From IMG/VR virus record IMGVR_UViG_3300010263_000121: 52,921 nt of DNA; one strand, 5' to 3'. The stretch is from a virus. This document shows, one piece after another, positions 4,002 through 27,584 of the stretch. The notes below the pieces were generated by a model, which worked only from the letters and a program-made list of their open reading frames with translations, did not search any database and had not been told where the DNA came from. Every line of letters starts with the position of its first letter. The first letter of the stretch is position 1. The translations under genes and the position numbers were made by a program.

Positions 4002-4004
4002 CCC

Positions 4005-4478: not shown

Positions 4479-5764
4479 GCCCCACCGCCCCCTTTAATGA
4501 GAACGGCTTTTCTGCCTGTATAGAGCTCCCAGCGGCTCACAGCCGCATCAACATAGCGAGGCTGTATCTCAATGCCGAGCGCCTTCCTGCCGAGGCTCTC
4601 TGCTGCAATTATCACCGTACCGGAGCCCATGAACGGATCGAGCACGTAGTCCCCGGGGAGGCTCCAAAGGGTTAGAACGCGTACAGCGAGCTCCACAGGG
4701 AAAGGTGCGATATGCCCGAGCTTCTTCGCCTCATTCTCGGTGTGAATCTGCCAGATGGTGTAGCGGTTCCACTCCATCGCCTCCGAGTGCAGCACGCCCT
4801 TCTTATCCCGCGGCTTCCATGCGCCCTTGAAGAAGACGAGCAGGGCCTCATGGGTGTTGTTTGGGATAGTGGGCCTTCTGTATGCCCCCGGAAGAGGCAG
4901 GCTCTTTACGTCCTTGTCCCAGATAATCTCACCGCGGTATCTGAAGCCCGTCTCGATGGCCGTAAAGGTATCCCTGGCGATGTTTGGGACATAGCCCTCG
5001 TTACCTCTGGGGATGTCTGCGGTGTTCCAGACGAGCACGCCTCCAGTTAGGAGCGCATCGTAGGCGAGTTTCATGGTCTTGTTCCCGACCTCTACGAGCT
5101 TATCCCCTTCCGTCTCCCACATATCCGCGCCGGGGTAAGGAGGCGAGGTAAAGATAAGGCTGGGAGATCCGGCTAGGCTTTTAAGCTCACCCCAAACTGC
5201 GGGATCGGTTGCATCACCGCAGATTAAGATGTGCTCGCCTAATTGATAGACATCTCCCAGCTTAGCGATAGGAGGACTTTCTTCGGAAGAGACAAGGGCT
5301 TCTTCAGGCTCGCTTATTTCAGGAGGGGCCCAGGTCATGATGCGCTCAAGCTCCATTTCATCGAAGCCCGTGATCGTGAGATCGAACGAGCCCGTGTCAA
5401 GCTCTTCTAAGAGATCAGCGAGCGCATCGAAATCCCACTCCGATTCATCCCGCAGGCGGTTGTCGGCAAGATTGTATGCCTTCGCCGTCTCATCGTCAAA
5501 CTCAACGAACACGGCCGCGACTTCGGTCAGCCCAGCTGCCTTTGCCGCTTCCCACCTTTGGTGGCCGGAGATTATCATGTTCGTGCCCTTCTGCGCGATG
5601 ATGGGGCTTACGAAGCCGAAGCTCTCGACGCTTATCTGGAGCTTCTCAAGCCCCTTTGGGCTTATCTTCCTGGGATTCCCCGCAAAAGGCACAAGACTTC
5701 CAACAGGGACATAAGCGAACTCAACCCTCTCCACCTTGACCATGAGCCTCTCCCTCCTGGCCAT
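4475..5764 (-). CDS. ParB-N domain fused to an N4-cytosine/N6-adenine DNA methyltransferase (beta-class order)
   Basis: The N-terminus has GNPRK ... SGHQR. The MTase part has motif IV TSPPYP upstream of motif I DPFMGSGT. Confidence 0.8.
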   Translation of the reverse strand: MARRERLMVKVERVEFAYVPVGSLVPFAGNPRKISPKGLEKLQISVESFGFVSPIIAQKGTNMIISGHQRWEAAKAAGLTEVAAVFVEFDDETAKAYNLADNRLRDESEWDFDALADLLEELDTGSFDLTITGFDEMELERIMTWAPPEISEPEEALVSSEESPPIAKLGDVYQLGEHILICGDATDPAVWGELKSLAGSPSLIFTSPPYPGADMWETEGDKLVEVGNKTMKLAYDALLTGGVLVWNTADIPRGNEGYVPNIARDTFTAIETGFRYRGEIIWDKDVKSLPLPGAYRRPTIPNNTHEALLVFFKGAWKPRDKKGVLHSEAMEWNRYTIWQIHTENEAKKLGHIAPFPVELAVRVLTLWSLPGDYVLDPFMGSGTVIIAAESLGRKALGIEIQPRYVDAAVSRWELYTGRKAVLIKGGGGA

Positions 5765-7936: not shown

Positions 7937-8818
7937 CTACTGACCCAGGATTCTCGCTCTAACTTCATCGGAAAAAGAGAATGGATCATAGCTTGCTGCC
8001 GCTTCTCTCTGCATGAAATCCTCTGTCCCGGGTAGGTATTCCGCAAGTGCGCTGTTCAACCACGTCTTACACAGCTTGATATGCCTCTTCTCCCGCCCTT
8101 CACGTTCCATCTGATTAGCATACCTTCGCGCCGCCTCAATTAGATCGTCGTGCTTAATCCCCAGTTTCCGGTCGGATACGATAGCTCTCCAGATTTCATA
8201 GGCTGCTGCTTTATCTTCTTTCCTGGGATAAGCATCCCAGAAGCGGTTGAACTCCTCCGGGTACTCCTTCTTCATCGCTCTCCTTAGGTTTGCTGTAGCC
8301 TTTCGCTCGCGTCCTGTTCGGATTGCACCTGCACTAGATACAGAATTATTGGTCTCATCTGGTAATGGTTGATCTGTAGTACTAGTTGTATCCGAAATTA
8401 CCGTATCCGGTAGAACCGTATCCGGTAATTTCGGACACGGAGCACGCTGGGCTTTTTCGCGTTCTTCCCTGCTTGGCGCAACTTCGATCTGCTCCTGAAT
8501 CACGTACACATTGCAGGAGAACTTCCCGTCTACCCGCTTCTGAATGACCTTGATGAAACCCCGTTCCTTGAGTTCTTCAAGATAGCTTGTGAAGGTGTCC
8601 TTGTTGATGTTCAGATCCCGGCATATCCTCGCCCGGCTCGGCCACGATGCCCTCCCTCCAAACTCCTCGTTGATACTAGCTCCGGCGATGCTGGAAAGAT
8701 AGCAGAACAGGCATTTTGCGCCGATGCTGATCTCGGGATTGCTCATCAGAAGAAACGGAGCCAGCCCATACCCCTTAGACAGCCACGACGTCTTACCAAA
8801 CTGAACACTCTCTCCCAC
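7937..8818 (-). CDS. Replication initiator / replisome-organizer-like protein (wHTH N-terminus, PDTV repeat linker)
   Basis: wHTH-like segment (ICRDLNINKDTFTSYLEELKERGFIKV), a PDTVLPDTVISDT linker typical of Firmicutes phage/plasmid Rep-organizer proteins, and a C-terminal FWDAYPRK segment. It shares this architecture with 10948..12216. Confidence 0.55.
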   Translation of the reverse strand: MGESVQFGKTSWLSKGYGLAPFLLMSNPEISIGAKCLFCYLSSIAGASINEEFGGRASWPSRARICRDLNINKDTFTSYLEELKERGFIKVIQKRVDGKFSCNVYVIQEQIEVAPSREEREKAQRAPCPKLPDTVLPDTVISDTTSTTDQPLPDETNNSVSSAGAIRTGRERKATANLRRAMKKEYPEEFNRFWDAYPRKEDKAAAYEIWRAIVSDRKLGIKHDDLIEAARRYANQMEREGREKRHIKLCKTWLNSALAEYLPGTEDFMQREAAASYDPFSFSDEVRARILGQ

Positions 8819-8915: not shown

Positions 8916-9284
8916 ACTCAACAAATGGATGCGGCTGGTGCAAAAAGGCACCAGTTAGCATGCGCCTTAGATAGGCGCACTCTTAGGCACGAGAAAAATC
9001 ACCTATCTGTCTGCCCTCGGTCAAAGGCTGAACTGATGATTTTTCTCGTCCGGCACGTGCGGTCTTAAGCTGCCCCCAAAACAGACTTAAGACCGCATCC
9101 TCTTATATCCCGCTTTCCGTAAGCCGAAGATCATAAAAGGGGATCTCCCTGAAAGCAAAATCCCCTAGTCCCAGCCTATCGCAACCTGCTATTTGCTTGT
9201 ACGGAATATGGTTTGTTTCTCAGGAATCAATAGGGATGATTTCTCGTAACCGGTTGTTTTTTCCTGCCACTTTGTTCGGTTTAA

Positions 9285-9480
9285 TTCCTTGACATACTCC
9301 CCATGGTTAAAACCAGGGGATTCTGGTATCAAACAAAACCAGCCTACTTATATAGGTCTTACAGTTTCTATCCCAAGAGTTGATGCCCCAACTCTATGAA
9401 TATTAGTCGCTGCATTTAGGTCTCTATCGTGCAAGATGCCACAATTCGGACATGTCCATTTTCTATCCCCGAGTGTTAGC
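9285..9480 (-). ncRNA. Predicted omega (right-end) RNA scaffold of TnpB; extent is a guess
   Basis: Inferred by analogy with ISDra2-type elements, where the guide RNA overlaps the tnpB 3' end and the right-end hairpin. Only the hairpin at 9299-9319 is directly visible. Confidence 0.3.
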
Positions 9481-10463
9481 TCTTCGTAGACAAACTCACA
9501 GGCAGAGCATGTTTTGCTTGAAGGATAGAATCTGGGTATTTCAATAACGGTTGAACCTGTTTTCGAGCATTGGTATTTGAGGATATTGACAAAGCTGCTA
9601 TGGCTTAAATCAGATATTTTTCTGCCCCATAGTTTTTGCATAGCCTTAATATTCAAGTCTTCGATACAAATTGTTGCATATTCGCCAGCTAGTTTTAATG
9701 CTAACTTGAAGTGGAAATCCCGCCTTTTGTCAGCTAAGCGCTTGTGAGCCTTTGCCAATTGCCTCTTTGCTTGCTTATAGTGATTGGAACCCTTTTGTTT
9801 TTTGGAAAGTTCTCGATTTAGTTTCGCAATCTGCCTCTGACTCTGCTTAAAAAACTCAGGAGATACAATATTCTTGCCATCTGATGCCGTGAGAAACATT
9901 TTTAAACCAAAATCATACCCGACGCTTTTACCTGTTCGTGGTAGAATTTCGTTGTTTGATGTCTCACAAACGACATAGATATACAAGTCCCCTAATGAGT
10001 CTCGCTTGACTGTTACAGTTTTTACTTTCCCTTCAATTTCACGGGACTTGTGGTATTTATAGGTTCTACCTCCAATTTTAATTCGGTTGTCTGAATACAG
10101 CTTATACCCAGCTTGCTTAAGAGTGAAGGATTTATACTTCTTCACCTTCTTAAAGGACGGTGGTGATGATTTAATCCCATGCTCCCGATTACGGAAAAAC
10201 AATTTGTATCCCTTATCTATGCGTTGGGCAATATCTTGAATAGCTTGCGAGCCAAGGGAGTTCCAATCCGAGTATTTTGGGAGTTTCTTAAGTTTAGTCA
10301 AGTGCTTCATCAACGCATAAACATTAAGACTCTTACCGTATAGTCGATAATATCGCTTGTGCAAGGCAATGCAATGGTTGTAGATTATCCCAGCAATATT
10401 GATTTGTCGCTCTAAATATCTATTCCGCTTGTGCTGATATAACTTGAATTTGTAGGTCTTCAT
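9348..10463 (-). CDS. tnpB: TnpB RNA-guided endonuclease (IS605 OrfB family)
   Basis: 371 aa. RuvC triad contexts GYDFGLK, CIEDLNIK and HDRDLNAATNI, a zinc finger CSACEF...CPNCG, and the typical N-terminus MKTYKFKLY. Confidence 0.9.
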   Translation of the reverse strand: MKTYKFKLYQHKRNRYLERQINIAGIIYNHCIALHKRYYRLYGKSLNVYALMKHLTKLKKLPKYSDWNSLGSQAIQDIAQRIDKGYKLFFRNREHGIKSSPPSFKKVKKYKSFTLKQAGYKLYSDNRIKIGGRTYKYHKSREIEGKVKTVTVKRDSLGDLYIYVVCETSNNEILPRTGKSVGYDFGLKMFLTASDGKNIVSPEFFKQSQRQIAKLNRELSKKQKGSNHYKQAKRQLAKAHKRLADKRRDFHFKLALKLAGEYATICIEDLNIKAMQKLWGRKISDLSHSSFVNILKYQCSKTGSTVIEIPRFYPSSKTCSACEFVYEELTLGDRKWTCPNCGILHDRDLNAATNIHRVGASTLGIETVRPI

Positions 10464-10947
10464 TGCCCTGCACCTCCTTAAACGCCCTTTTGTTTTTCAA
10501 TATACTGCTTTATTGCTGACAACGGAGAACCGCCTACAGTTGAAACAAAATAACTATTTCACGAATAAACAATATCCTTATTGGTTTTATATTCCATGTC
10601 CGCATTATACAGGTTTAACCTACATAATATCAAGCAAATATTCGGCTTATATCCCCACGCCTAAAGTCGGGGGCTTTACGCCGATTTCGGGGTAAGCCCG
10701 TACTTCGACCGTTCTTCTTCTCCCATGCTGGCAAGATGATTGGCCAATATCTTTTCAAAAATCTCTTTCTGCTGCTCTGTTAGGTTTCCCACAAGTTTTC
10801 TCCGATCCATCTATAATCTGAATCTTTCGGTGCCGATTCGTTTAGGAGCCTCATACGGCTCTAATTTCCCCAAGACAGGTAAAATATCAGGTAGATACCT
10901 TTTCTCCTGTCCTGGCTTGTCCCTGGGCTTCTGGATGCAATTTAAGC

Positions 10948-12216
10948 CTAACCTTGCATCCTCTCCCATTTCTCCCATTGCTCAGTCAAGGTATGGCGAA
11001 GAAGAAGCTCATGCTCTTTGAGCATATCCCGTACTTCCTCATCACGATAAATTTTGATCTCCCGAATTTTTTCCTCATAAGCACGTAAACGTCTTTTGAG
11101 TTCTGAATCCACATCATCAAAGGGCTTTTCAACAACCTTCTCCGCTCGTACCATTTCAGTCTCTTGGCCAAATAAGCTGCTAAAGTTATGTCCTCTGTCC
11201 TCATAAGTGAAATCATCACGCGTAAACTTGCCTAAATCATTCCTGCTTGTCCAATTATCACGATTCAAAAAGTGCTCATAACCTTTACGCTCCAAGAATT
11301 CAACCAGACGATATTTGTGCTTAGCTCTATAGCTTTTGAATAAATCCGCATAGTTCAGGATTGCCATAAATAGATCTTCAGCAGAAAAATCAGTTAAAGC
11401 CTCATTCCAGGCATCGATGATCCTCTGCTTTGTCCTATCCCCTAAACGATAGTGAGGGTTAACCTCTTGATTATTCCAGAATGAAATCAGATCATCAGCC
11501 GTTAACTTCTTAGTTAGCAAAGCTGAATAATCACGCTTGGCTTTCTTTTCCTTCTCTCGCTTAAGTTGTTCTTGATAGGCCTTCATAGCAATAGATGCAA
11601 AATCATCCTCTGGTTCTTCTTCTGTCTTTAAATCAAAAGAGGATTCTCTCTCCACCAATTCGTCAGAATTGGTTTCTCTTTCTTCTTCACTTGTAGCTGC
11701 TATCTCTGAAATGGGTGAGAGATCATTATTGTTTTGATCATTATTACTAAGATCAATATTATTAGTGTCGGGTTTTCCAGATACGGGTTTACCAGTTACG
11801 GAAAACCCGTTTCTGGGTTCTAGCTGGGATTTCGTATTTTCCCCCCTCTTTTTATCCAGTAACGGATTTTCCGTTTCTGGCTTTACGCTGGCTTTTTGCA
11901 GAAGTCTCTCCTGCGGCACTTCATAGACGATTGTTTCCTGATGAGAAAATTGTCCAGTCTCGGGATCCCTGATTTTTATCCGTTCTATGTAACCCTTCTG
12001 CTCTAGTTCTTTCAGAATAGAGTTCACTGAATCACGACCATTGGTTGCTCGTTTGACCAAATCAGCCACAATTACGGTCCAGTTATCAGGCTTACTAAGC
12101 AGGTAGGCCAATAATCCTTTTGCCTGCCAACTTAGATTATCATCATTAAGTGGTCTGTGGTCTATCATCACAAACGGATTTTCACGCTTACTGGTTCTGA
12201 CTATATTTTTACTCAC
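10948..12216 (-). CDS. rep: Plasmid/phage-type replication initiator (wHTH N-terminus), AT-rich paralog of 7937..8818
   Basis: 422 aa with a GTG start and a GAAAGGGG RBS. wHTH segment NSILKELEQKGYIERIKIRD and a PET/KPD-rich linker (GKPVSGKPDTNN). It lies next to the iteron array. Confidence 0.6.
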   Translation of the reverse strand: MSKNIVRTSKRENPFVMIDHRPLNDDNLSWQAKGLLAYLLSKPDNWTVIVADLVKRATNGRDSVNSILKELEQKGYIERIKIRDPETGQFSHQETIVYEVPQERLLQKASVKPETENPLLDKKRGENTKSQLEPRNGFSVTGKPVSGKPDTNNIDLSNNDQNNNDLSPISEIAATSEEERETNSDELVERESSFDLKTEEEPEDDFASIAMKAYQEQLKREKEKKAKRDYSALLTKKLTADDLISFWNNQEVNPHYRLGDRTKQRIIDAWNEALTDFSAEDLFMAILNYADLFKSYRAKHKYRLVEFLERKGYEHFLNRDNWTSRNDLGKFTRDDFTYEDRGHNFSSLFGQETEMVRAEKVVEKPFDDVDSELKRRLRAYEEKIREIKIYRDEEVRDMLKEHELLLRHTLTEQWEKWERMQG

Positions 12217-12303
12217 AAAAAAAGCCCCTTTCTACCGAAAGAGACCTCCCACACGAATAGCAAGATAACCCAATATCTTCCTTGTCCTTAAGTGACATAA
12301 AGG

Positions 12304-12333
12304 TTGACATGATGCCCATCCTCATGCTACTAT
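12304..12333 (+). promoter_or_regulatory. Near-consensus sigma-70-type promoter facing away from rep
   Basis: TTGACA (12304-12309), an 18-nt spacer, then TGcTACTAT (extended -10, 12325-12333). Confidence 0.5.
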
Positions 12334-12339
12334 AAAGCA

Positions 12340-12446
12340 AGAAAGATACTTTTCGTGAGGGCCTTACCCGTGTGCCTGCAAGCAGTTGGGGGAGGCCTCT
12401 TTCTTTTTCACGTTTTACTGAAGGGCCGCGAGGCCCTTCTTTTTTT
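12340..12446 (+). ncRNA. Candidate ~105-nt small RNA (possible rep countertranscript)
   Basis: The segment is bounded by the promoter at 12304-12333 and a strong plus-strand terminator at 12420-12446. No credible ORF lies within it. Confidence 0.35.
12420..12446 (+). terminator. Rho-independent terminator (plus strand)
   Basis: Stem gaagggcc / ggcccttc with loop gcga, followed by 7 T. Confidence 0.75.
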
Positions 12447-12544
12447 GTCTGATCGACCATCAACTTCTTTCGACATTGGGCCGCCATTACCTTCTTGAGA
12501 GCGTGCAAAATCCGCATGGCAAGCGCATTTCATGATATCAGGAA

Positions 12545-12671
12545 ATCAAGAAATCAATTTTGACAGCAAGACATCAAGAAATCAAGATTACAAGCAAACA
12601 ATATTTCAAGAAAACAATATTTCAAGAAAACAAGATGGCAAGAAATCAAGAGATCAAGAAAACAATATTTC
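12545..12671. repeat. Iteron-like repeat array (candidate replication origin)
   Basis: ATCAAGAAATCAA(G) occurs at 12545 and 12573, with a related CAAGAAATCAAGAGATCAAGAAA at about 12638. ACAATATTTCAAGAAA occurs twice in tandem at 12598-12629, with a third partial copy at 12661-12671. The array is AT-rich and non-coding. Confidence 0.7.
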
Positions 12672-12715
12672 TGGATAGTGCCGAGATTCACAAACATGGC
12701 CCTAATATGGCGTAA

Positions 12716-12748
12716 AGAAAGCCCGCCTTTTAGAATCGGCGGGCTGCC
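12716..12748 (-). terminator. Rho-independent terminator after the KAP NTPase gene
   Basis: Stem agcccgcc / ggcgggct. On the minus strand it is followed by TTTCTTT. Confidence 0.6.
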
Positions 12749-12826
12749 CCTTGGGTCATTTCATCCTAGAAAAACATAGTCGTCTGAAGCTGTTCATGCA
12801 AGTAAGTGCTTTCAACTAGTCAGAAG

Positions 12827-14662
12827 TCAAGGGGAAGAGGTCTTGTCTGCAGCCCGATTTCCTATGTCGTTCAGGAGCCTGATCAAGTCTTCAAAACGTT
12901 GCTTTCTCATCCTGTCGAGTTCATCGGAAGAAGCCACGAACTCTCTAAGATGATCCGCAATAGCTTTCATCGCCTCTCCCTCTTGGCATGTAGCACAACC
13001 ATTGAGTTTTACCGTCAAAATATACTCCATCCTCCATATTGCTCGATTATTGAAGTCAAAGAGCTTGCGGAAGAGTTCGTGTTCCCGCAGAGTAGAGAAC
13101 AATTGGCGTAGGTTTACATGGCGGATGGCCGTCCAGAAGGCCTCTTCGTCATCGCTCATCATGGTTTCCAACAGATGCTCTATCTTAGCCACAGCATTGC
13201 GAACTTCAGCCTCTTGCTTTAGCTCTCTTATCTTCTCGACCAATTGGCTGTATCCATCATCTTCCGCTGAGTTAGCCGACAAGGCACCTTCATCTAGTTC
13301 GAGAATATTGCTTGTTCGCTCAGCAGCCGCATCAACGCCTCTTTCGATAGTACCAAAAAAGTCTTCCGGAAGATTATCGATATACCGGCGTTCAGCGATC
13401 TCTTTCATCACCTTATATATTGATGGGTATAACCTAAGCTCATACAATCCGGCTGAAGCATATTCCAATACTTGTGATACCGCAGTCTCTAGAGTGTGTT
13501 GCTCAAGTTCCTTAAACCGCCACAGTTTCTCGAGCGACGTAGCATACTCAGGAGGGGATTCACGCTGGCTTTCTTCCAGTTCCGAGAGAAACTTCTGTCT
13601 GTTGAAGAGACCCTTGACTATTGAGTCGAAGACGCTATTGCAGTAATACCTACCCCATGAACTATCTATACCGTACTTCTCGCAGATCTCAACAATACGT
13701 GACTTATGCGGTCGCTTGTTCGGCTTCGAAAGAGCGTTATGAACCGACCATTTAAGCCACGCGCCATATGGGTCTTTGATCTCGTTTTCGTCTTCGACAG
13801 TAAGGCCACCACCGGAAAACTCTATTGCCAGAACCAATGAAATAGCCAGCAAGTATCTTAGGCGTTCTCTATACCTTGACTCATTACCTATGCATTGAAA
13901 GATGTTTCGAAAACACTCCAGCGCCAGCCCGAGATACCTAAGATTCGTTTGGCCACTCTTTGTGTAGATTCCGACTAACATATCAATATGCTCTTGCACA
14001 AACGTCATTAGCTCAGGCTTGTTGCTGCAGTGATCCGAAACGATGCTCTCAACCACTTGCCTTAGATCTGGCGAGAAAGAGACTATCCTCCGAATGACTT
14101 TTTCACGCATGCGCAAATAATTCGTTTGCCACTTGCTTTGCACTTCTTCTTCGTTTGCGATAAACACGACCTTTGCCCCATCTGGGTCAATGAACAGAGA
14201 ATAGATGGTCCCAAGCAGTTCGTTAATGTCAACCGATTCTGGCATTCGTTCCAAGTCGTCCACAAACAACGCATTGCGCGACCAATTTAGCTCTTCCAGC
14301 GTCTTCTGCTTGAAGAATCCCCCTGCTCTACCAGCGGCTTTCAACATCTTCTCTGCGCGAGGAATAGCCCCGATAAGCTCGATGACTGGCTCAATGAACG
14401 CGGGGCCCAACCACTGCTGACCTGCGAAGAGCTTACTATACAAGATCTGCCTAGTCACAGTGTTAATATCCTGTATCCCGTACAAAGAGATGTAAATAGG
14501 GGTCAATCCAAGTTCTTTTGCTAGGGGAATCATTGAATTGCGAACAAAATAAGTCTTTCCAGAACCCCACCGTCCATTCAGCAAAACCGCATAATCAGTC
14601 TTTGGGGTTTCTAGATATTGCCTCAAGGTCTCTTCGCATATCATGCAAATCCACCTCGCCAT
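12827..14662 (-). CDS. KAP-family P-loop NTPase
   Basis: 611 aa. Walker A GRWGSGKT (the KAP-type GxWGxGK[ST] signature), Walker B LFVDDLER, and a long helical C-terminal region. Confidence 0.7.
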   Translation of the reverse strand: MARWICMICEETLRQYLETPKTDYAVLLNGRWGSGKTYFVRNSMIPLAKELGLTPIYISLYGIQDINTVTRQILYSKLFAGQQWLGPAFIEPVIELIGAIPRAEKMLKAAGRAGGFFKQKTLEELNWSRNALFVDDLERMPESVDINELLGTIYSLFIDPDGAKVVFIANEEEVQSKWQTNYLRMREKVIRRIVSFSPDLRQVVESIVSDHCSNKPELMTFVQEHIDMLVGIYTKSGQTNLRYLGLALECFRNIFQCIGNESRYRERLRYLLAISLVLAIEFSGGGLTVEDENEIKDPYGAWLKWSVHNALSKPNKRPHKSRIVEICEKYGIDSSWGRYYCNSVFDSIVKGLFNRQKFLSELEESQRESPPEYATSLEKLWRFKELEQHTLETAVSQVLEYASAGLYELRLYPSIYKVMKEIAERRYIDNLPEDFFGTIERGVDAAAERTSNILELDEGALSANSAEDDGYSQLVEKIRELKQEAEVRNAVAKIEHLLETMMSDDEEAFWTAIRHVNLRQLFSTLREHELFRKLFDFNNRAIWRMEYILTVKLNGCATCQEGEAMKAIADHLREFVASSDELDRMRKQRFEDLIRLLNDIGNRAADKTSSP

Positions 14663-14731
14663 CAGTTGGATAGAGTCTGAGTACTAGGTTCATCATCTTA
14701 ACCCCAGAAGATGGAGCCGGGAGGATGCTTT

Positions 14732-15415
14732 CTATCTCTTCCATCCGTCTATATCGAGATAAGCAAAAAGCATCGAACACAACCTAAGTAAGACTTCTGC
14801 TGATTCTGAGCTGTCTTTAAGGGCAGAAACCATCTCGGTGAAGGATTCTTCATCCCGAAATCGGCTGAACACTGCGTGGAAGAACCAAATGGCGACATTC
14901 CAAAACTCGCCTTCGCGAATTCTCTTGGCTCGGGAGACATCCTCGAGGTAGGACATCATTTCCCTCATAGCAAGATAGGTCCGCTCGGCCACTGTATGGG
15001 TAACCATACCGCGCGCGTAGTAACTCGAGAGTGTCTTGAGCTCCTGAACCATACTCCGGACATCTAGATCGGGGGAGGGAATCTCCCTTGATGAACCGGT
15101 CTTCCGCAGCTCTTCATTTTCTGCCTGAAGTGCCGCGAGCTGCTCACTCAACCTGTCGATATCAGCCCGGAAACCGCTGTTCTCCTGCTCAAGCTGCTCA
15201 AGCTGGGAAAGAAGCTCAGCCTTCTCTTTGGTTAGCTCCTGGATCTTCTGGTTTTTCTTCTCGATCTCCACCATAAGCACGGCCTTTCCGGCATCCACAG
15301 GTTCAGCGCTGGGCTGATTCTCTGGTATGAGCCCCAACTCACTCAATCCCTCGTTGATCTGCTGTGAGTCTTTAATCAAGCGGGCGGCCAGTCCTTCGCG
15401 CTTCGCTGCACTCAC
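14732..15415 (-). CDS. Coiled-coil protein translationally coupled to ParA (partition adaptor or system component)
   Basis: 227 aa. A heptad-rich central part (IQELTKEKAELLSQLEQLEQENSGFRADIDRLSEQLAALQAENEELRK). The GTG start directly abuts the ParA stop codon. Confidence 0.4.
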   Translation of the reverse strand: MSAAKREGLAARLIKDSQQINEGLSELGLIPENQPSAEPVDAGKAVLMVEIEKKNQKIQELTKEKAELLSQLEQLEQENSGFRADIDRLSEQLAALQAENEELRKTGSSREIPSPDLDVRSMVQELKTLSSYYARGMVTHTVAERTYLAMREMMSYLEDVSRAKRIREGEFWNVAIWFFHAVFSRFRDEESFTEMVSALKDSSESAEVLLRLCSMLFAYLDIDGWKR

Positions 15416-16402
15416 TTAGACCGCCTCCGTTTCAACCGCCAAACCGAGGAGCTCCTTGGCGAGATCCATGAACTGCTTTGCAGCCTCACTGTTGGGATCG
15501 TACGCGCCGATCGGCTTATCATCAAACTGCGCTTCGCTTACCGCATTGAGCTTCTTGATGACGGTCTTCGCGAACGGATACTGGATCACTTCTGGGATGG
15601 TATTTATGAACTCTTTCGTGGTATTGGTGCGGTAGTCGGCCATGGTTATCACGAAGCGGTTTATCGTCAGGCGCTTGTTGATCTGGCGTACTGAACCAAT
15701 AGTCTTGAGGAGCAGCTTAACTCCTTCCAGGGAGAACTTGCTGACCGCGATGGGGATGAGGCAGGAATCCGCCGCCACCAGAGCGTTGATCGTAAGTAGG
15801 CCAAGCGAAGGAGGGCAGTCGATGAAAATATAGTCGTACTTAGCGAGATGGTCCTGTGATGCGAGCAGCGAGTTAAAGAGCACAGACTCCCGGCTCATCC
15901 GCATGATGAGCTCCACCTCCGCTTCGCTAAGCGCAATCGTGGCCGGCACTACACCGAATCCGAATTTGCTGTCCACAATCGCTTCGTGGATAGGAAACCC
16001 ATCGATCAAGACTTCCGTCATGGTTGCCGTAGCGATGGCTTCGGCGTTGATGCCAACACCCGTGGATGAGTTCGACTGCGGATCCATATCTAGCAGCAGT
16101 ACTTTCTTGCCGAGCTTCCCAAGAGCTTCGCTTAAGTTGATAGATAGCGTTGACTTGCCGACGCCACCCTTCTGGTTCACGATCGCTATAATCTCCGGGA
16201 GCTTCGATCCCTCGGTCGATTCGTTGCTCAGGGTATGTAAGTAAGCGTTGGCATCTTCGACCCGCACCCGCCATTGAGCCCCTACCTTAGTCGCCGGTAT
16301 AGTTCCGTTCGTTATCAGCTTATGGGCCGTATTGTAGTGAACCCGCAGGTATTTCGCTAAGGCAGCAACGCCGATGAGGTACTCTTCGTTTCCCATGGCC
16401 AC
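15416..16402 (-). CDS. parA: ParA/Soj-family ATPase with N-terminal excisionase/MerR-type HTH (type-Ia-like)
   Basis: Deviant Walker A NQKGGVGKST. The N-terminal HTH is LAKYLRVHYNTAHKLITNGTIPATKVGAQWRV. A likelier start is ATG 16396, with GAGGTG 5 nt upstream. Confidence 0.85.
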   Translation of the reverse strand: MAMGNEEYLIGVAALAKYLRVHYNTAHKLITNGTIPATKVGAQWRVRVEDANAYLHTLSNESTEGSKLPEIIAIVNQKGGVGKSTLSINLSEALGKLGKKVLLLDMDPQSNSSTGVGINAEAIATATMTEVLIDGFPIHEAIVDSKFGFGVVPATIALSEAEVELIMRMSRESVLFNSLLASQDHLAKYDYIFIDCPPSLGLLTINALVAADSCLIPIAVSKFSLEGVKLLLKTIGSVRQINKRLTINRFVITMADYRTNTTKEFINTIPEVIQYPFAKTVIKKLNAVSEAQFDDKPIGAYDPNSEAAKQFMDLAKELLGLAVETEAV

Positions 16403-16404
16403 AC

Positions 16405-16440
16405 CTCACATTCACATTTCACATCCGTTCACACAATCAC
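16405..16440. promoter_or_regulatory. Cluster of (T/C)TCACA direct repeats immediately upstream of parA (operator or centromere-like candidate)
   Basis: CTCACA at 16405, and TTCACA at 16411, 16418 and 16428, plus AATCAC at 16435. On the minus strand these read as TGTGAA repeats. Confidence 0.4.
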
Positions 16441-16533
16441 TTCTAGACACAACTGGGAAGTCCTGCAAGCAAGAAGAAAAAAGATAGGAAGATGGCGATA
16501 GGTGAGTCGCAAATGTCGGCCTCAAGATCACAC

Positions 16534-18057
16534 TCATGATCTAAGGAGCTTTACCCTCTCTAACCAGACGTAATAGTCTTGGACAGCCAGGTTCATACAC
16601 TCTCTTCGATTCCTGGACGACGTCTGCTCAGCATATCTCTTGTTGTAATACAAAGTGAAACTGTGAACAGCGGCAGCCAAACCCGAGCAACATGTCTGTA
16701 ATTCATGAAGCTCCGGCGGAGCATACCCAAGTTCACCCTCTCTAGTGTACACCTCTTCGATCTTAGGTATTAGGCTGTCCATCTTGTCAAAAAGCTCACC
16801 TTCGCTGATATCCTCATTTTGGAACTGGTTATAGATGGAAATAGCCTCTTCGGCTAAGGAGATTAACTCTGCGATTATGTCTCGACTCTGCGCAGCAAAA
16901 ACCTCTGCGGGGACCGCATGATTGTTCCTCAAATCTCTCAACGTCTCATAGTATGGATAGAGGGTAAAATGCAGTCCTTTATCCACAAAATCGTGTTGGT
17001 AGCATCTGTACCACCAAGTTTTGTCTTGCTGTTCATCGACCCATGTAACACGGCACAAGAAATGACCATGTATCATGTCCTCTTCGTCTCGGCCATAGTA
17101 TATCCAGATAATGTTGGCGGGTTTACCCCTCCAGCGTCTCTCCGAAATCTCATTCTTATGAACCTCTTCATAAAGCAGTCTGTTCTTTATGTCAGTAGAT
17201 ATATCCCCAATCTCGGAAATCGAAAACGGTTCCTTAAGAATGACCTTTGCGGAATATCGTTTTGCGCTGCTAGAGTTTGTTGGTTCAACGTCATAGATAA
17301 TGTACCGTTCCGTTTCTTCGAAAATCCGATTGCGACAATAACGAGTGTATTCCTCCACATCGAAGTAGACTGTACCTACCATACTTCTTCGGAAAACAGG
17401 ATGCTGCTGCCTATCTGGATTCCGTTTATTCCACAGGTCAAGGTAAAGAGAAACTAATCTGCAGATATCGTTTAGCGACTTTTTTCCATGTCGCACTATA
17501 TGCTTGTCTTCCAGAGCATCACACAGAAAAGCAGTAAACAAACTCATTTCTTTGCCGGGGTGCCCCCACGATAATTGGTCTGCTTTACTTGACGCCAGAA
17601 CAGCATATCCTTTTCCTACAAGCTCTTCCACAGCGTGATGGATATCAAGTGAGACAGAACGATCCAAGCTAAAGTCACCGGCCATGCAGCAGTCGAGAAC
17701 GATAATTTTGGTCTTAGCTCGTATTCTTTCAAGAGAACATATGATATCTTGGGCACTAACAATAGTATCACTAAACTGGAGATAGTAGCAGGCTTGGCCG
17801 CTGCCACCATGTCCTGAAAAGTACAACATGAAGATATCATCTTCGGCCACACGAGAACCCAAGTCGACCAGTTCATCAGAAAACAGCTTTGCATTAACTG
17901 TTCCCGCTTCTCCCAAGGAAGCAATGTTTTCTGGTCGTACTCTCAGGCCACTCTCCAAGGCGCGTCTCATTGCAATGATATCATTGCGGCAGAATGGCAG
18001 ATTATAGTTCTTCGGCCAATAATTACTGACACCAACAAGAAAAGCCCATATTGCCAT
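16534..18057 (-). CDS. Caspase-like (peptidase C14 fold) protein with an uncharacterised C-terminal domain
   Basis: 507 aa. His/Cys dyad contexts YFSGHGG and VLDCCMAG lie in the N-terminal ~230 aa. The remaining ~270 aa have no motif I recognise. Confidence 0.65.
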   Translation of the reverse strand: MAIWAFLVGVSNYWPKNYNLPFCRNDIIAMRRALESGLRVRPENIASLGEAGTVNAKLFSDELVDLGSRVAEDDIFMLYFSGHGGSGQACYYLQFSDTIVSAQDIICSLERIRAKTKIIVLDCCMAGDFSLDRSVSLDIHHAVEELVGKGYAVLASSKADQLSWGHPGKEMSLFTAFLCDALEDKHIVRHGKKSLNDICRLVSLYLDLWNKRNPDRQQHPVFRRSMVGTVYFDVEEYTRYCRNRIFEETERYIIYDVEPTNSSSAKRYSAKVILKEPFSISEIGDISTDIKNRLLYEEVHKNEISERRWRGKPANIIWIYYGRDEEDMIHGHFLCRVTWVDEQQDKTWWYRCYQHDFVDKGLHFTLYPYYETLRDLRNNHAVPAEVFAAQSRDIIAELISLAEEAISIYNQFQNEDISEGELFDKMDSLIPKIEEVYTREGELGYAPPELHELQTCCSGLAAAVHSFTLYYNKRYAEQTSSRNRRECMNLAVQDYYVWLERVKLLRS

Positions 18058-18118
18058 CGATCGACCCTCACGATCTTCCTTTGATAACCTCTGGTTTAGA
18101 CCTGCGAAGGGTTCTACA

Positions 18119-18583
18119 TCAACTCGAATGGTTATCGCCTCTCGCCATCATCTCACCTCGATAAGCACGTGTATCAAGTTTTCGAAGAATCCGCTTGAGT
18201 TCTCTGGCCGGGTTCTCCTTTAGCCGACATTCCCATACGCGTATTACTGTCCAGCCAAGCCTTCTGAGCTGTGTAGATACACGCCGATCCCTCCGCTTAT
18301 TGCGCGCGATTTTACCAGACCAATACGCGCAATTCGACTTAGGAATATGCCCATCATGGCAGTGAGGACAGCCATGCCAAAAGCACCCATCGACAAAGAC
18401 AGCTACCTTAGCTTCTGGGAAGGAGAAATCTGGTCTGCCAGGAAGGCTCGGATCATGCTCTTGCCAATGGCTATATCCAGCCTCTTCAAGCATACTTCGC
18501 AATTTTAACTCGGTACTTTTTGCCCCGACACTCCTAATGCGAGACATGACAAGTGACCGCTTTTCCTTATCAAAGACGTCCAT
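18119..18583 (-). CDS. vsr: Very short patch repair endonuclease
   Basis: 154 aa with SRIRS..TELKLRS, GRPDF and FVDGCFWHGC motifs. It is adjacent to a C5-MTase and REase pair. Confidence 0.9.
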   Translation of the reverse strand: MDVFDKEKRSLVMSRIRSVGAKSTELKLRSMLEEAGYSHWQEHDPSLPGRPDFSFPEAKVAVFVDGCFWHGCPHCHDGHIPKSNCAYWSGKIARNKRRDRRVSTQLRRLGWTVIRVWECRLKENPARELKRILRKLDTRAYRGEMMARGDNHSS

Positions 18584-18585
18584 AG

Positions 18586-19446
18586 TTACACAGCCAAGTC
18601 GAAAGGCAGATCGCTGATATCTCTAAGCCGTCTGCCTTCAATTAGTGTTTGCAGCATCTCATGCTGGTCACGAACACCCGGATTTGCGTGGCTCAGTTCA
18701 TCAAGGGCTTCCTCAAGCTCATACAGAGCAAAATGATATACGCAGTCCAAATCGCCAGTTCCCAAGGCAAGAGATGCTATCCTCATTGGCAACGGTTCAG
18801 CCGTTACAGCAACAATATGAGGGCTGTTCCCTTTTCGATTCCGGATTAAATTCAGCGCTTCAGTTCTGGTGTTCTGTGCTCGATCAGAGCGCATCGTCCA
18901 TTTACAGGATATGCTTGCGTGTAAGATCGGCACGGGATCACCAGAACGATTGACGCGCCGTAACGGTGTATGCGTAGCAATAAACGGTGTATCTCCCTCA
19001 ACGCCAATATCCTCATCAGCTACGGGGATGCGGCACACCACGATGTCCGGCTTAATTATGTAGTCTGGACCCAGAGTGGCCATCAATTCTCTGCGGGTGT
19101 TGAGGATCTCGTTCAACTCGGCCAAATGCCGATACTGATCGAAATCCGATATCGAACGCTCAGTGCTAAATATCCACGGGCCTGGTCTTAGCCGGTTCAG
19201 CAACCTAAACGATCGCTCAAGATATTCCTTGGTTATGGTTCCAAAAAGGGCCCCAGCTGTTTGAGCAGATGGTGGCGTGGCGCAATGGGGGCCTCCAATC
19301 TTGCTTGCTAACCTTGCAGAGATCTGGCGGCTCGATTCACTAGACCGATCGGCTATATTGACGACACCGTCACGAACAGACAAAAGGCGTTGAGATATCT
19401 CTCTATGGTATTGCTGCCGCAAAGTGTTCATCTCGTTCAGAACCAT
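18586..19446 (-). CDS. Type II restriction endonuclease, NgoMIV/Cfr10I family (CCGG-core recognition predicted)
   Basis: IIKPDIVV (the PD element) and ISCKWTMRSDRAQN, which contains the S-x-K catalytic element and the R-S-D-R recognition motif described for NgoMIV-family enzymes. It sits between the MTase and Vsr. Confidence 0.7.
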   Translation of the reverse strand: MVLNEMNTLRQQYHREISQRLLSVRDGVVNIADRSSESSRQISARLASKIGGPHCATPPSAQTAGALFGTITKEYLERSFRLLNRLRPGPWIFSTERSISDFDQYRHLAELNEILNTRRELMATLGPDYIIKPDIVVCRIPVADEDIGVEGDTPFIATHTPLRRVNRSGDPVPILHASISCKWTMRSDRAQNTRTEALNLIRNRKGNSPHIVAVTAEPLPMRIASLALGTGDLDCVYHFALYELEEALDELSHANPGVRDQHEMLQTLIEGRRLRDISDLPFDLAV

Positions 19447-20524
19447 TTCCTATATTCTCCTTTCGCTCCTGGTTAAGCGCCTGCATAATGGACTTTGCCA
19501 GAGCATTGGCAACCACAGGACACACTGCTTCCGACACCTGACGGACCTGCGCAGAGATATTCCCCTTGAGGACGTAGTCCTTAGGAAATGCCTGAAGAAG
19601 CATTGCTTCATATATGCTCAACCGCCGGTGTCCGTTTGGGTGCACATGCACTTCCCGGTGGCCGTATGCAACCGTGTACGAAGGCCGATCCCAATCGAGG
19701 ATCTTAAATGACTTTCCTCCCATGCGCTTACTCAAACCATTGCTGAACTTAGGCGACCGCGGCACCAAGCACCAGTGATTAGGATGGACAGGAAATGTAT
19801 CAGGATTAAGCCCTTTTGCATTGTAGACTGGTTCAGGTAGACCCCATATGACATCTCTTACCGTTTTGCGCGGCACTAATGGATCTGGAACAGGAAACCT
19901 GAACTCGATATCAGGGTACTTCTCCTTGTTAAAACCCACAACAAACACTCTTGGCCTTATCTGAGCTACTCCGAAGTCTTGTGCATCGAGTGAACCCTGA
20001 AACAGTCGAAAGCCAGCTTCTTCGAACATTGCCTCAAACTTCTTGAACTTAGCAATATGCGAAGCTGACATCAGGCCAGGAACATTCTCAAACAGAAAAA
20101 AGTCAAGCCCGACTCTTTCCCGAAGCCCAGCAACGATTCTGGCATAATGCTCTGGCAATTTATGCCTTGGATCTTCGTCAGTAGAGTATACATTAGCGTA
20201 ACTAAACGATTGACAAGGAGGCCCCCCGATTACGCCGACAACATCGTATGGGCCAGCAGGCAGCGCTTCCGCAAGAATCGACTCTACACTAACCACGCTC
20301 AAATCCCGAATGCGTGCTACCGGGTTTTCGGGTCGATTGTAGTTATATGTCTCTACACAAACTGGATCGATGTCAGCTGCATAGAGGATGCTAGCGCCAA
20401 CCATCTCAAACCCGAGGTCCAGCCCACCAGGCCCAGAAAACAAGCTATAGCAGCCCATCTGAATAGAATCATATCCAAGTTCATAGGTACAGCGCTTTCT
20501 GTTGCGGTGATACATCTCTAACAC
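19403..20524 (-). CDS. DNA (cytosine-5)-methyltransferase, cognate to the adjacent REase
   Basis: FSGPGGLDLGF (I), GGPPCQSFS (IV), ENVPGL (VI), QIRPRVF (VIII). Confidence 0.9.
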   Translation of the reverse strand: MLEMYHRNRKRCTYELGYDSIQMGCYSLFSGPGGLDLGFEMVGASILYAADIDPVCVETYNYNRPENPVARIRDLSVVSVESILAEALPAGPYDVVGVIGGPPCQSFSYANVYSTDEDPRHKLPEHYARIVAGLRERVGLDFFLFENVPGLMSASHIAKFKKFEAMFEEAGFRLFQGSLDAQDFGVAQIRPRVFVVGFNKEKYPDIEFRFPVPDPLVPRKTVRDVIWGLPEPVYNAKGLNPDTFPVHPNHWCLVPRSPKFSNGLSKRMGGKSFKILDWDRPSYTVAYGHREVHVHPNGHRRLSIYEAMLLQAFPKDYVLKGNISAQVRQVSEAVCPVVANALAKSIMQALNQERKENIGNGSERDEHFAAAIP

Positions 20525-20834: not shown

Positions 20835-21701
20835 TTAAATAGGCAGATAGCGACTTGACGTGTCATCTGGTCTAACGTGAACATACTTCGAAGTCGTGGC
20901 CAGGGAAGCGTGTCCGAGCTGCGCCTGCACAAGATGGATGGGTGCACCGCGATCCAATGCGTGCGTCGCGTGACTATGGCGCATGAAGTGCGGGCTGACG
21001 TCTTTCTTGATTCCCGCTCGCTTCGCTGCCTCTTTGACAATAGCCCACATCCTGCACGTAGAGAGCGGATTTCCTTTCTGAGAGACCCAAACAGGATCAT
21101 CAGGCTGCCAGTCTTCTGGCCTGATGTCCTCTAAAAGCTCAAGTGTCTCCTTGGTGAGCTTGATAAACCGATTCTTGCCGCCTTTACCGTGCACAGTTAG
21201 GACCCCATTATTTATGTCTTTCCAGCACATTTTATGGGCCTCTTCGACCCTGACTGCGGTGGAGTAGAGGAATCTAATCAACACCTTGTCTCGAAGCTTA
21301 GGGGTATATTCAATGAGCTTAAAGACCTCTGTCTCGGTCAGGATGCGGTTTGACAGCTCATTGGGGATCTTAACGCTTTCCAGAGCGGCACCCACGTTCG
21401 CCACAGTAAACCCGGCCCTGTATGCAAACGCGAGCAGCGACTTGACTGCAGCGAGCTTCCGCGCCTGAGTTGCCTTTGCCAACCCCTGCAGGCTGTTCAG
21501 ATACTCGACCAGATCAGGAAGCGTAATCTCTTTGAGATGTTTGCCGCCGATGAAGGCCAAGAATTGCTGAATGTCATAGCGGTAGACCCTCTGCGTCTGT
21601 CTGGATTTCCGAGACAACCACAGTTCGATTATCCTGTCGTTGGATGCATTCAGCCTCGGCTGAAGATACATCGCGATACCCTGCTGGAGTTCGATTGCCA
21701 C
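20835..21701 (-). CDS. int: Tyrosine recombinase (phage integrase / XerC-D-like)
   Basis: 288 aa with an N-terminal SAM-like core-binding domain. Catalytic contexts are VRVEEA (R), HFMRHSHAT (HxxR) and GHASLATTSKYVH (H..Y). The start is GTG with a GGAGG RBS. Confidence 0.9.
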   Translation of the reverse strand: MAIELQQGIAMYLQPRLNASNDRIIELWLSRKSRQTQRVYRYDIQQFLAFIGGKHLKEITLPDLVEYLNSLQGLAKATQARKLAAVKSLLAFAYRAGFTVANVGAALESVKIPNELSNRILTETEVFKLIEYTPKLRDKVLIRFLYSTAVRVEEAHKMCWKDINNGVLTVHGKGGKNRFIKLTKETLELLEDIRPEDWQPDDPVWVSQKGNPLSTCRMWAIVKEAAKRAGIKKDVSPHFMRHSHATHALDRGAPIHLVQAQLGHASLATTSKYVHVRPDDTSSRYLPI

Positions 21702-27306: not shown

Positions 27307-27584
27307 TTCAGATTTTTCGCAAAGTAGGCCGCGGCTTTTTTTAGCATTTCGTTCTCCATCTTCAATTCAGCGAGTTCTAGCTGCAGCTTTCGAAGCTGGT
27401 CCTGTTGCTCAGCTACCTTGGTCTTTTCACCGCTTTCGGTATAGATTTTCCGCCAACGATATATCATGCTGTGGTGAATACCAAGATCTGCGCAGAACTC
27501 CTTAATGGGCTTTGTAGTGACGTAACTGAGTTTGACTGCGTTCTTGCGGAACTCATCGTCATAGCGCTGTCGGATTTTGGACAT
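27303..27584 (-). CDS. IS3-family transposase OrfA (HTH)
   Basis: 93 aa, starting MSKIRQRYDDEFRKNAVKL, with a leucine-zipper-like C-terminus. An A7 slippery run (plus-strand T7 at 27336-27342) sits before the stop. I translated the -1 frame from there into OrfB and it is open (..KKSRGLLCEKSEVKYELIRT..). Confidence 0.9.
   Translation of the reverse strand: MSKIRQRYDDEFRKNAVKLSYVTTKPIKEFCADLGIHHSMIYRWRKIYTESGEKTKVAEQQDQLRKLQLELAELKMENEMLKKAAAYFAKNLK

Follow-up and report, generated by a model that had tools for sequence, protein, structure and literature searches.

Comparative analysis of the viral genome IMGVR_UViG_3300010263_000121 (IMG/VR), a stretch of 52,921 nucleotides referred to below as the window, points to a temperate siphovirus-like phage of an uncultured anaerobic-digester Bacillota host whose lysogens would be maintained mainly as a low-copy circular plasmid, a reading to which we assign a probability of roughly 55%. 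The features that favor an episome, and make this phage a candidate phage-plasmid, are a cassette of plasmid-type replication and partition genes, a leader resembling a copy-control region upstream of the initiator gene, two initiators, a mid-genome tyrosine recombinase that lacks an arm-binding domain, and the absence of a tRNA or a recognizable attachment (att) core. An earlier reading of the sequence alone (the original prediction) had already proposed a phage-plasmid. Its central idea stands, in that a plasmid-type replication and partition set lies in a complete temperate tailed phage, in a conserved order, with a copy-control-like leader and with plasmids that carry the same genes, while its details on the repeat array, the class of the ParA protein and the continuity of the genes do not. 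All the features that it named were located, in place or a few bases off. The maintenance region, read in its direction of transcription, comprises the following features, with expectation values in brackets.

20835-21701, minus strand: Xer-like tyrosine recombinase of 288 aa (Pfam Phage_integrase 2e-36 and Phage_int_SAM_1 1.5e-10)
16403-16483, minus strand: parA promoter/operator region with TGTGAA repeats (Tandem Repeats Finder, TRF, and conservation)
15416-16402, minus strand: ParA-family ATPase with an N-terminal excisionase-type helix-turn-helix, HTH (AAA_31 1e-54 and HTH_17 1.6e-9)
14732-15415, minus strand: partner protein of 227 aa, with a GTG start immediately after the ParA stop codon
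12511-12694, no strand: repeat array with conserved flanks, the array itself at 12537-12671 with periods of 8, 16, 32 and 48 bp (TRF)
12304-12447, plus strand: predicted counter-transcript of ~105 nt, with promoter TTGACA-18-TACTAT and TG extension at 12304-12333 and terminator at 12420-12447
12217-12410, minus strand: rep mRNA leader, with an inverted repeat formed by arm A (12387-12403) and arm B (12237-12253)
10948-12216, minus strand: Rep-like initiator of 422 aa (PHROG replication-initiation and DnaD-like families)
11720-11896, no strand: iteron-like repeats and AT-rich stretch in the linker of rep (TRF repeats at 11720-11761 and 11769-11801)
7937-8818, minus strand: second initiator-like gene of 293 aa (phrog_270 replication initiation protein, 1.9e-30; HTH_36)

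Comparison with relatives, denoted here by L-numbers, indicates that this maintenance block is core to a phage lineage. ParA homologues with the same HTH were found at 73-98% identity on many digester and bioreactor metagenome contigs, some of them labeled as Saccharofermentanales or Bacillota metagenome-assembled genomes (MAGs). The order recombinase, variable cargo, HTH-ParA, partner, optional cargo, 8-bp array, structured leader, Rep, second initiator and late genes is kept in more than ten distinct relatives, in which only the cargo varies, and the colinearity between L107 and the window extends over 20 kb, from the early genes to the methylase/terminase region. Outside this set the lineage is sparsely represented: the partner profile found a single species representative among GTDB genomes, on a 25.7-kb contig of a Bacillota MAG; a search of IMG/VR with the large terminase (TerL) yielded no isolate relatives; and in deposited phages nucleotide similarity was limited to one 77-bp match, with no full-length HTH-ParA and ParA identities of at most 45%, confined to the ATPase domain. 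Plasmid-type partition and replication genes, by which phage-plasmids are recognized, are present in the window, and the same trio occurs on plasmids that are not phages. On a 13-kb Brevibacillus plasmid, ParA and a small gene overlapping it are found together with a tyrosine recombinase and a protein homologous to the Rep N-domain (51%), and on a 55-kb Chlorohelix plasmid a full-length HTH-ParA (35% identity) is followed, in the same order, by an overlapping gene and a gene for an HTH protein.

The ParA-family protein, which probably starts at the ATG at 16396 as in its relatives, matches phrog_164 at 4e-60 and exhibits the deviant Walker A motif KGGVGKS. HTH_17 covers residues 12-55, a DNA-binding extension that the ParA proteins of type Ib partition systems do not have; this HTH passes the cut-off of TIGR01764 (excise; 39.3 vs 28.8) and is nearly invariant across the family types. 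The original prediction had assigned the protein to type Ia, together with the ParA and SopA proteins of P1, F and N15; the N-terminal HTH on which that assignment leaned is present, while the assignment itself is not supported. The nearest solved structures are ParA/Soj chains (2e-46 to 1e-33), the best being a chain named 'ParA family protein' (8ray, 2e-46) and the Soj and segregation-protein chains falling at 7e-35 to 1e-33, whereas the type-Ia ParA chain 3ez9 matches at only 2.4e-7. The NCBIfam partition equivalogs are all missed, SopA at 43.5 bits vs a cut-off of 725 and PrgP at 53 vs 400. By these comparisons the ATPase domain is Soj-like and lies outside the P1/F/N15 type-Ia clade. Short direct repeats had been claimed upstream of parA, and they were indeed found there: TRF detects 2.9 copies of the 7-bp repeat TCACATT at 16406-16424, and a TGTGAA cluster at 16411-16433 occurs nowhere else in the window. 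The TGTGAA region is kept in all relatives, even where ParA is only 75% identical, and the motif TTTGTGAA of this operator region also marks one flank of the array. The invariant HTH and the conserved TGTGAA region fit an autoregulation of parA by the HTH of its own product, which would be type-Ia-like in its working only.

The partner gene had been described as coupled to parA, which its GTG abutting the ParA stop codon bears out; the pair is kept in every relative, and the partner always lies directly after ParA. The partner protein consists of a conserved, basic N-terminal KREGLAARLI helix, which we take to resemble the ParB N-termini that stimulate ParA, followed by a long coiled-coil segment and, after it, a helical C-domain. 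Its family is tiny, with 6 clusters in 5.8 billion proteins. Profile searches of Pfam, NCBIfam and PDB returned only coiled-coil matches, with neither a ParB_N nor an HTH domain, so that the cognate ParB of a type-Ia system was not found, and its AF2 model is all-helical and weak (pLDDT 64.7, pTM 0.29).

The Rep protein matches PHROG families of replication initiators (phrog_4707 at 2e-26, phrog_428 and phrog_186), gives only sub-threshold HTH_36, MarR_2 and TrmB matches in Pfam, and has no matches in PDB. Its architecture is tripartite, with a variable winged-HTH (wHTH) N-domain, a low-complexity linker and a conserved C-domain (~aa 236-420); the C-domain is common to Rep types with unrelated N-domains, at 28-50% identity, and the N-domain has homologues on small plasmids, 35-51% identical and annotated as replication or HTH proteins. 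The suggestion that the replicon had been captured by recombination is well supported, since elements with ~79% identity to the window in their ParA DNA and ~76% in their integrase DNA share its Rep block at 10912-12408 at 99% identity. This segment is also AT-richer than the structural genes, as had been noticed, with a GC content of 0.40-0.43 over 9-13 kb vs 0.53-0.58 in the structural region.

All five Rep types hold their own in-gene repeats, sited in the linker. The window exhibits CCAGTWACGG...CCGTTTCTGG at 11792-11896, including a 41-nt repeat pair at 11792-11832 and 11856-11896, followed by AT-rich (AATAATGATC)x3 at 11720-11761. The corresponding repeats are four copies of a 19-bp palindrome-containing unit in L101, three of them 22-23 bp apart; three copies of an 18-bp unit in L015, also spaced by 22-23 bp; tandem 16- and 18-bp pairs in L023; and two 21-bp copies in L017. 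Because the repeats lie between the variable N-domain and the conserved C-domain, in the design of lambda O, pAD1 and pSK41, the candidate origin is probably inside rep, at 11720-11896.

The leader of rep and its opposite strand share a topology that matches, by analogy, the antisense control of rep in Gram-positive plasmids, with the RNA itself being a prediction. The antisense promoter and terminator are the top-scoring such sites in 10800-12900, and the predicted counter-transcript folds as two hairpins. The leader is unusually structured (fold z-score -5.1), and a hairpin with a U-run that could act as a terminator or sequester the Shine-Dalgarno (SD) sequence lies at ~12217-12250, directly before the rep GTG. 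Five divergent leader types all exhibit, at the same position, a perfect antisense TTGACA, a spacer of 17-18 nt and a TAnnAT -10 element, and all keep the plus-strand terminator. In each of them arm A (AAAGAGGCC... or AAAGGAGCC...) can pair with arm B in a candidate anti-terminator helix, and arm B can alternatively enter a 13-14 bp hairpin whose 3' arm is the SD sequence, followed by a U-run up to the start codon. The pairing was judged by duplex and hairpin folding of each type, by shuffles and by a cross-type matrix: the duplex of arms A and B reaches -21 to -29 kcal/mol vs ~-8 for shuffled arm B (0/500 shuffles reach the observed value), and the terminator/SD hairpin -13 to -19 kcal/mol. 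The leader types form two groups (A/B/C and D/E), between which pairing is mostly weaker than within them, and the loop-proximal hairpin pairs covary (CC/GG, CUUC/GAAG and CUGAU/AUCAG). Two leader types also have a short leader open reading frame (ORF) coupled to rep. RNAalifold on a MAFFT alignment of the leaders was discarded, as it chose a spurious pairing because arm B was out of register between types in that alignment; Rfam gave nothing at the gathering score and no match to a counter-transcript (ctRNA) family, with only chance-level matches in the leader. Sequestration of the SD of the pSK41 kind and attenuation of the pT181/pIP501 kind are equally plausible modes of control (PMC5703833). 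Since negative feedback on initiator synthesis suits a stable plasmid and not a purely lytic module, the leader lends support to plasmid-style maintenance.

The second initiator adjoins the RusA-like and late genes, has its own 15-bp repeats at 8388-8424 (TRF) and is kept in the phage relatives, which makes it a candidate lytic-cycle initiator. P1 has separate plasmid and lytic replicons, which the two initiators of the window recall. Upstream of the second initiator gene, at 8930-8960, we also observed an inverted repeat, CTGGTGC-CTTTTT-GCACCAG, with a T-rich 6-nt spacer; its compensatory counterpart in L125/L126 (5815-5838) is TTGGTACA-TTTTTT-TGTACCAA, and L125 enters host DNA ~25 bp beyond it. 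This inverted repeat may be a terminator, part of an origin or a site of recombination.

The tyrosine recombinase claimed for the circle was confirmed, with a SAM-like domain and a catalytic domain and without an arm-binding domain, a two-domain architecture that fits resolution enzymes of the XerC/XerD/XerA or Cre type. Its top NCBIfam models are XerA, XerD and XerC, all of them under the equivalog cut-offs (192/220, 180/330 and 169/335 bits), which leaves the protein outside these curated families, and its top tblastn matches in public collections lie on plasmids of 18-93 kb at 42-47% identity. The gene sits mid-genome, in the orientation of the early genes, and never at a phage-host boundary in phage contigs: element DNA flanks it on both sides in the window, L002, L003, L007, L008 and L107, and its closest phage homologue, in phiKM1, is likewise mid-genome. 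ARAGORN found no tRNA in the window, by which a tRNA-based attP was discarded; no tRNA fragment was detected either, and the host-like flanks that were compared share no attP/attB core with it. A hairpin upstream of the recombinase, inside which the window and L003 lose their 99% identity, was considered as a lox/dif-like core and set aside, an intrinsic terminator being the simpler explanation. Cre resolves the dimers of P1, and the recombinase of the window could act likewise; phage-plasmids have been proposed to possibly retain recombinases for dimer resolution (PMC7969092).

The repeat array is made up, on the minus strand, of nnnnnTTG units in strict 8-bp register, 13 of them consecutive and 3 more set off by a 4-nt shift. 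The genome holds no second array of this kind: a search for five in-register CAA(N5) units gave 9 matches, all within 12567-12665, and none in 100 shuffles. Its flanks, TTTGTGAAnnnnGGCACT and ATCATGAAATGCGCTnnCCATGCGG, are kept in most relatives. A Rep gene with an adjacent iteron array had been proposed; both exist, while the tie between them does not hold, as the array tracks the type of ParA and partner instead. L023, L101 and L107 have arrays of the window type (79-86% identical) along with closely similar par genes (ParA 99% in L023 and L107, partner 92-95%), yet the window, L023 and L101/L107 carry three unrelated types of Rep N-domain. In the opposite direction, L003 and L114 share with the window a Rep protein that is 97-98% identical, but ParA is only ~84-86% and the partner only 45-47% identical, and their arrays consist of ATATTG- or TTATTG-rich units, so that near-identical Rep proteins occur with three array types; L010 combines the par genes and array of L003 with a different Rep. 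This double dissociation is the decisive point, by which the array more likely belongs with ParA and partner than with Rep. In the relatives free of cargo at this position (L101, L105 and L116-118) the array begins no more than ~100 bp after the partner stop, which indicates an ancestral order of ParA, partner and array into which a KAP NTPase gene was inserted. Short direct repeats beside the partner gene are what is expected of a type Ib centromere, and because partner and array diverge in parallel between types (the partner by 39-55%), co-variation suggests that the partner binds the array. The array is thus a candidate centromere-like site, and perhaps also houses the rep promoter, because weak promoter-like sites lie on the rep strand inside it. 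It is possible, if doubtful, that the array is instead the origin or iteron set of Rep, or a rep promoter with an AT-rich unwinding region, and not a centromere. Its location ~320 bp ahead of the rep start, with the par operon on its other side, and the same promoter-like sites would suit such a role, as would pBMB165, in which deletion of analogous 8-bp repeats abolished replication (PMC1626470), so that the array is perhaps not purely a centromere. Many Klebsiella plasmids, in unannotated DNA close to the start of their records, also showed a weak similarity by blastn (73% over ~110 bp) to part of the array region, a similarity that we treated as low-complexity resemblance. What speaks against an origin here is that array type and Rep N-domain are uncoupled in both directions, that each Rep type has specific in-gene repeats, spaced by 22-23 bp in two of them, and that the mobile, 99% identical Rep block ends at 12408, before the array. 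In addition, in elements of the L017 type a cargo gene stands between two arrays, of which the first directly adjoins the partner stop, and a period of 8 bp is atypical of initiator iterons, which usually measure 17-22 bp.

The lifestyle of the phage has to be weighed against integration. That it is an ordinary integrative temperate phage, with the recombinase as integrase, Rep and/or the 293-aa protein as phage initiator and ParA and partner as accessory cargo, for instance a remnant or genes with a non-partition function, appears unlikely to us, even though several observations weigh on its side and against plasmid maintenance. The tyrosine recombinase is intact in all relatives and could be an integrase, and no clear dif/lox-like core was identified; virion DNA or excised circles would likewise be expected to give a circular assembly; the PHROG families of Rep are phage initiators, and its wHTH/DnaD-like family, with the origin inside the gene, also provides many temperate Firmicute phages with their standard lytic initiator; and the region of 9-21 kb can be read as a low-GC cargo island (restriction-modification, R-M, with Vsr, a caspase-like protease, the KAP NTPase PDC-S49 and TnpB). 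On the side of partition and copy control, the partner has no recognizable DNA-binding fold in its poor AF2 model or in the PDB profile search, and the RNA mechanism is a prediction whose five leader types fall into just two covariation groups. One relative, moreover, has a chromosomal par-rep module: in the SPAdes contig L125 the module, whose Rep block is 99% identical to that of the window, as it is in L126, is joined to an mscS/iron-ABC-transporter locus with no shared k-mer at the junction. The matching empty site occurs at 99% identity in another sample (L142, positions 1-360), the orthologous locus is found in a related species on contigs of up to 243 kb (L137-L141), and L126, from another sample, enters the same mscS via a 55-bp terminal overlap (junction spans L125:5800-5870, L126:5800-9015 and L142:1-360). 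The two junctions, however, lie 70 bp apart and cut the element immediately ahead of or behind the second initiator gene, with no late phage genes beyond them; L125 and L126 thus look like a decayed or rearranged chromosomal copy and not a clean site-specific integration. Host-like genes after the partner or Rep were also seen in L004, L005, L011 and L012; those of L004, L011 and L012 were rejected as signs of integration because insertion sequence (IS) elements stand at the junctions or the contigs end there, while L005 has no IS at its junction, and most of the other host adjacencies fall at IS junctions or in N-joined scaffolds. L001 and L123 (GCA_900198705.1), initially candidates for integration in long contigs, were dismissed as scaffolds joined by N100 gaps, in which the phage-like piece is one 5,062-bp contig. 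The GCA_900198705.1 records are binned metagenome contigs with 100-N spacers, one of 23 Mb, and adjacency across the gaps is meaningless. Further against a purely integrative phage, ParA, partner, array and Rep form a syntenic core in which only the intervening genes vary, the recombinase keeps away from phage-host boundaries, neither an att core nor a tRNA was found, and antisense negative feedback on an initiator would be unexpected in a purely lytic module. Less likely still, in our estimate, is a dual lifestyle, in which the phage would be kept as a plasmid via rep and par and would in addition integrate, reversibly or occasionally, via the recombinase, IS elements or homologous recombination. 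Both gene sets are intact and conserved, the close relatives include circular or episome-type contigs as well as the chromosomal copy, IS elements cluster at the rep-distal border, and phage-plasmids that alternate between integrative and plasmid states have been reported (PMC7969092); no pair of clean att junctions was found, however, the evidence of integration comes from a single host locus, and an active, unrepressed plasmid origin is usually disfavored in a chromosome.

If lysogens are indeed kept as plasmids, which we favor, replication would begin with the binding of Rep to the iteron-like repeats in its own gene (11720-11896), as in lambda O and pSK41/pAD1-type replicons, and the conserved Rep C-domain would recruit the host replisome loaders. 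Copy number would be set by the ~105-nt counter-transcript from the antisense leader promoter, which would limit Rep synthesis: by pairing with arm A it would free arm B for the SD-containing 13-14 bp hairpin with its U-run, causing attenuation and/or occlusion of the ribosome site, and the formation of this hairpin would act as negative feedback on copy number. In partition, the partner may bind the 8-bp array as a centromere and stimulate the Soj-like ParA through its basic N-terminal helix, with ParA segregating the copies over the nucleoid and its invariant HTH binding the TGTGAA operator to autoregulate the operon. The Xer-like recombinase would resolve multimers, and the second initiator (7937-8818) would drive lytic replication.

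Each part of this set has counterparts in known systems, from which it also departs. Of the phages and plasmids in RefSeq, 5-7% are phage-plasmids (PMC7969092), and those compared here, P1, N15, SSU5 and the plasmid prophages of Bacillus and Clostridium/Clostridioides, are likewise temperate tailed phages with an initiator, a ParA, a tyrosine recombinase and defense or accessory cargo (PMC7969092). The window differs from them in that its ParA is not of type Ia, its partner is not a ParB, and its copy control is apparently RNA-based. The copy control of P1 works by iteron handcuffing. With the type-Ia systems (P1 ParA, F SopA and N15 SopA) the window appears to share an N-terminal DNA-binding extension of ParA, a plausible autoregulation at upstream repeats and a centromere-like site downstream of the second gene, but its ATPase is Soj-like, its partner has no ParB_N and HTH domains, and its HTH is of the excisionase/MerR type and spans ~55 aa; the N-domain of type-Ia ParA proteins measures ~100 aa. 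Cluster A mycobacteriophages are temperate siphoviruses with ParA-based extrachromosomal prophage maintenance, in which parABS replaces the integrase; the window differs in having both a recombinase and par genes, and in its partner, which is not a ParB.

Among plasmids, pSK41 has its origin within rep, a variable N-domain that binds Rep boxes, a dispensable central linker and a conserved C-domain; its RNAI, complementary to leader sequence located ~100 nt before the start, induces a stem-loop that includes the SD sequence and thereby sequesters the ribosome site, and in the natural hybrid pPR9 a phage-like HTH_36 N-domain (with the origin) has been swapped in while leader and C-domain were retained (PMC5703833). 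The three-part Rep, the in-gene repeats and the antisense design of the leader are alike in the window, for which an origin inside rep and a counter-transcript are both predicted. RepA_N (PF06970), in contrast to pSK41, was not detected in the Rep of the window, which resembles the pPR9 hybrid in this, and the hairpin of the window carries a U-run, so that attenuation of the pT181/pIP501 type is equally possible. In pBMB165, pXO2, pAW63 and pAD1 a ParA-like gene and an overlapping small gene, flanked by 8-bp repeats, lie next to rep (PMC1626470, PMC9743546; the latter treats class F theta plasmids). The likeness to pAD1/pCF10 and to pXO2/pAW63/pBMB165 thus extends to a ParA-family gene with an overlapping partner of no known family and to 8-bp arrays beside the pair, next to rep, and also to the iteron/stability region, which varies more than any other part and serves as a node of recombination (PMC1626470, PMC9743546). 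These ParA proteins, however, have no N-terminal HTH, their repeats TAGTARRR and ATAGTGTAA are unrelated to the nnnnnTTG of the window, and the window differs further in its 227-aa coiled-coil partner and in a PrgP score of 53 against 400.

Cargo genes and insertion elements surround and interrupt the maintenance block at the positions given below.

20524-18119 (direction of transcription): Dcm methylase, NgoMIV-type endonuclease and Vsr, defense-type cargo
18057-16534 (direction of transcription): caspase-like C14 protease of 507 aa, defense-type cargo
12827-14662, minus strand: KAP-family P-loop NTPase (PADLOC candidate PDC-S49 at 2e-59 and Pfam KAP_NTPase)
9289-10690, minus strand: TnpB-only insertion sequence of the IS200/IS605-type OrfB kind (OrfB_IS605 and Cas12f1-like TNB domain)

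These define two cargo hot spots, one on each side of the par genes. The slot between recombinase and parA, filled in the window by the defense block at 16534-20524, holds other R-M, ApeA/HEPN, AbiJ, TIR and caspase genes in relatives. The slot of the KAP NTPase is empty in the cargo-free relatives named above and is occupied by a serine protease-like gene in L023, a gene for a PEGA protein in L003 and elsewhere a 152-aa ORF; by this comparison the KAP NTPase is an inserted defense-type cargo gene outside the maintenance set. Because this unrelated gene separates Rep from ParA, the gene continuity between the two that the original prediction implied does not exist. The TnpB element lies just downstream of the Rep module, and L125, L126 and L002 are colinear with the window across 10691|9288; an IS3-family element takes its position in other relatives, which makes this an IS hot spot that also breaks assemblies.

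Phage-plasmids are already known, and no existing concept is overturned here; what is new is the lineage, the HTH-Soj-type ParA with a coiled-coil partner, and the swapping of Rep/origin units. Should the phage be kept as a plasmid, it would represent a phage-plasmid lineage in uncultured anaerobic-digester Bacillota, a group barely represented among known phage-plasmids. The analysis defines compact parts, namely a candidate in-rep origin, a predicted counter-transcript of ~105 nt, an 8-bp centromere-like array and an uncharacterized ParA partner, and the independent shuffling of the Rep N-domain/origin, of par and centromere, and of the defense cargo bears on how incompatibility and defense repertoires evolve in phage-plasmids. 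More tentatively, and with less confidence than in the plasmid lifestyle itself, one can picture the recombinase, HTH-ParA, coiled-coil partner, 8-bp array and ctRNA-controlled Rep as one maintenance cassette that phages, plasmids and chromosomal islands of digester Bacillota have in common and can exchange. A new partition variant would then be possible, in which ParA reads an invariant operator and a non-ParB coiled-coil adaptor reads fast-diverging 8-bp arrays; the Rep N-domain with its in-gene origin, and the defense cargo at the two hot spots, would have been swapped recently, at 99% identity, and such swapping would reset incompatibility and let phages switch back and forth between episomal and integrated lysogeny.

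The phage nature of the window rests on a complete set of virion and packaging genes, one of the traits by which phage-plasmids are defined (Pfeifer et al. 2021). An identical 123-bp sequence at both window ends closes the assembly to a circle with a unique length of 52,798 bp. The terminase, capsid and tail genes and this circular assembly agree with the complete tailed phage that had been proposed. Nearly all genes from 0.7 to 27.6 kb lie on the minus strand, and the further genes of the window are listed here.

23788-22646 (direction of transcription): Sak4-like ATPase
22565-21796 (direction of transcription): small HTH protein and a 142-aa ORF, between the Sak4-like ATPase and the recombinase
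7566-675 (direction of transcription): RusA-like, sigma-like and ParB_N/methylase genes, then the terminase, in the minus-strand block
675-2138: TerL
34048-37056: tail protein (a major tail protein and further tail proteins were also found)
37807-41238: tape measure protein
47713-48696: major head protein
50739-51626: head-morphogenesis protein

Some further observations concern these phage regions. Beside the terminase, at 3495-5764, three ParB_N-domain genes stand in tandem, among them a fusion with an N6/N4 DNA methylase; they are typical of phage packaging regions and probably unrelated to partition. An IS3-family element at 26428-27584, with an HTH_Tnp_1 ORF and an rve transposase ORF, marks the edge of the early region, and beyond it the sole plus-strand block, at 27653-33446, encodes a protein with a Cry1Aa domain-IV-like region, an SdpI-family membrane protein and a GNAT acetyltransferase, likely lysogenic-conversion cargo. 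The tape-measure gene holds a 90-bp tandem repeat of 5.3 copies at 39557-40036. Finally, three clusters of 16-bp direct repeats, with units such as GCTTAGGAAACTAGAC, were found at 51644-52165, between the head-morphogenesis gene and an ORF at 52198-52878, where they might form a packaging or regulatory site.

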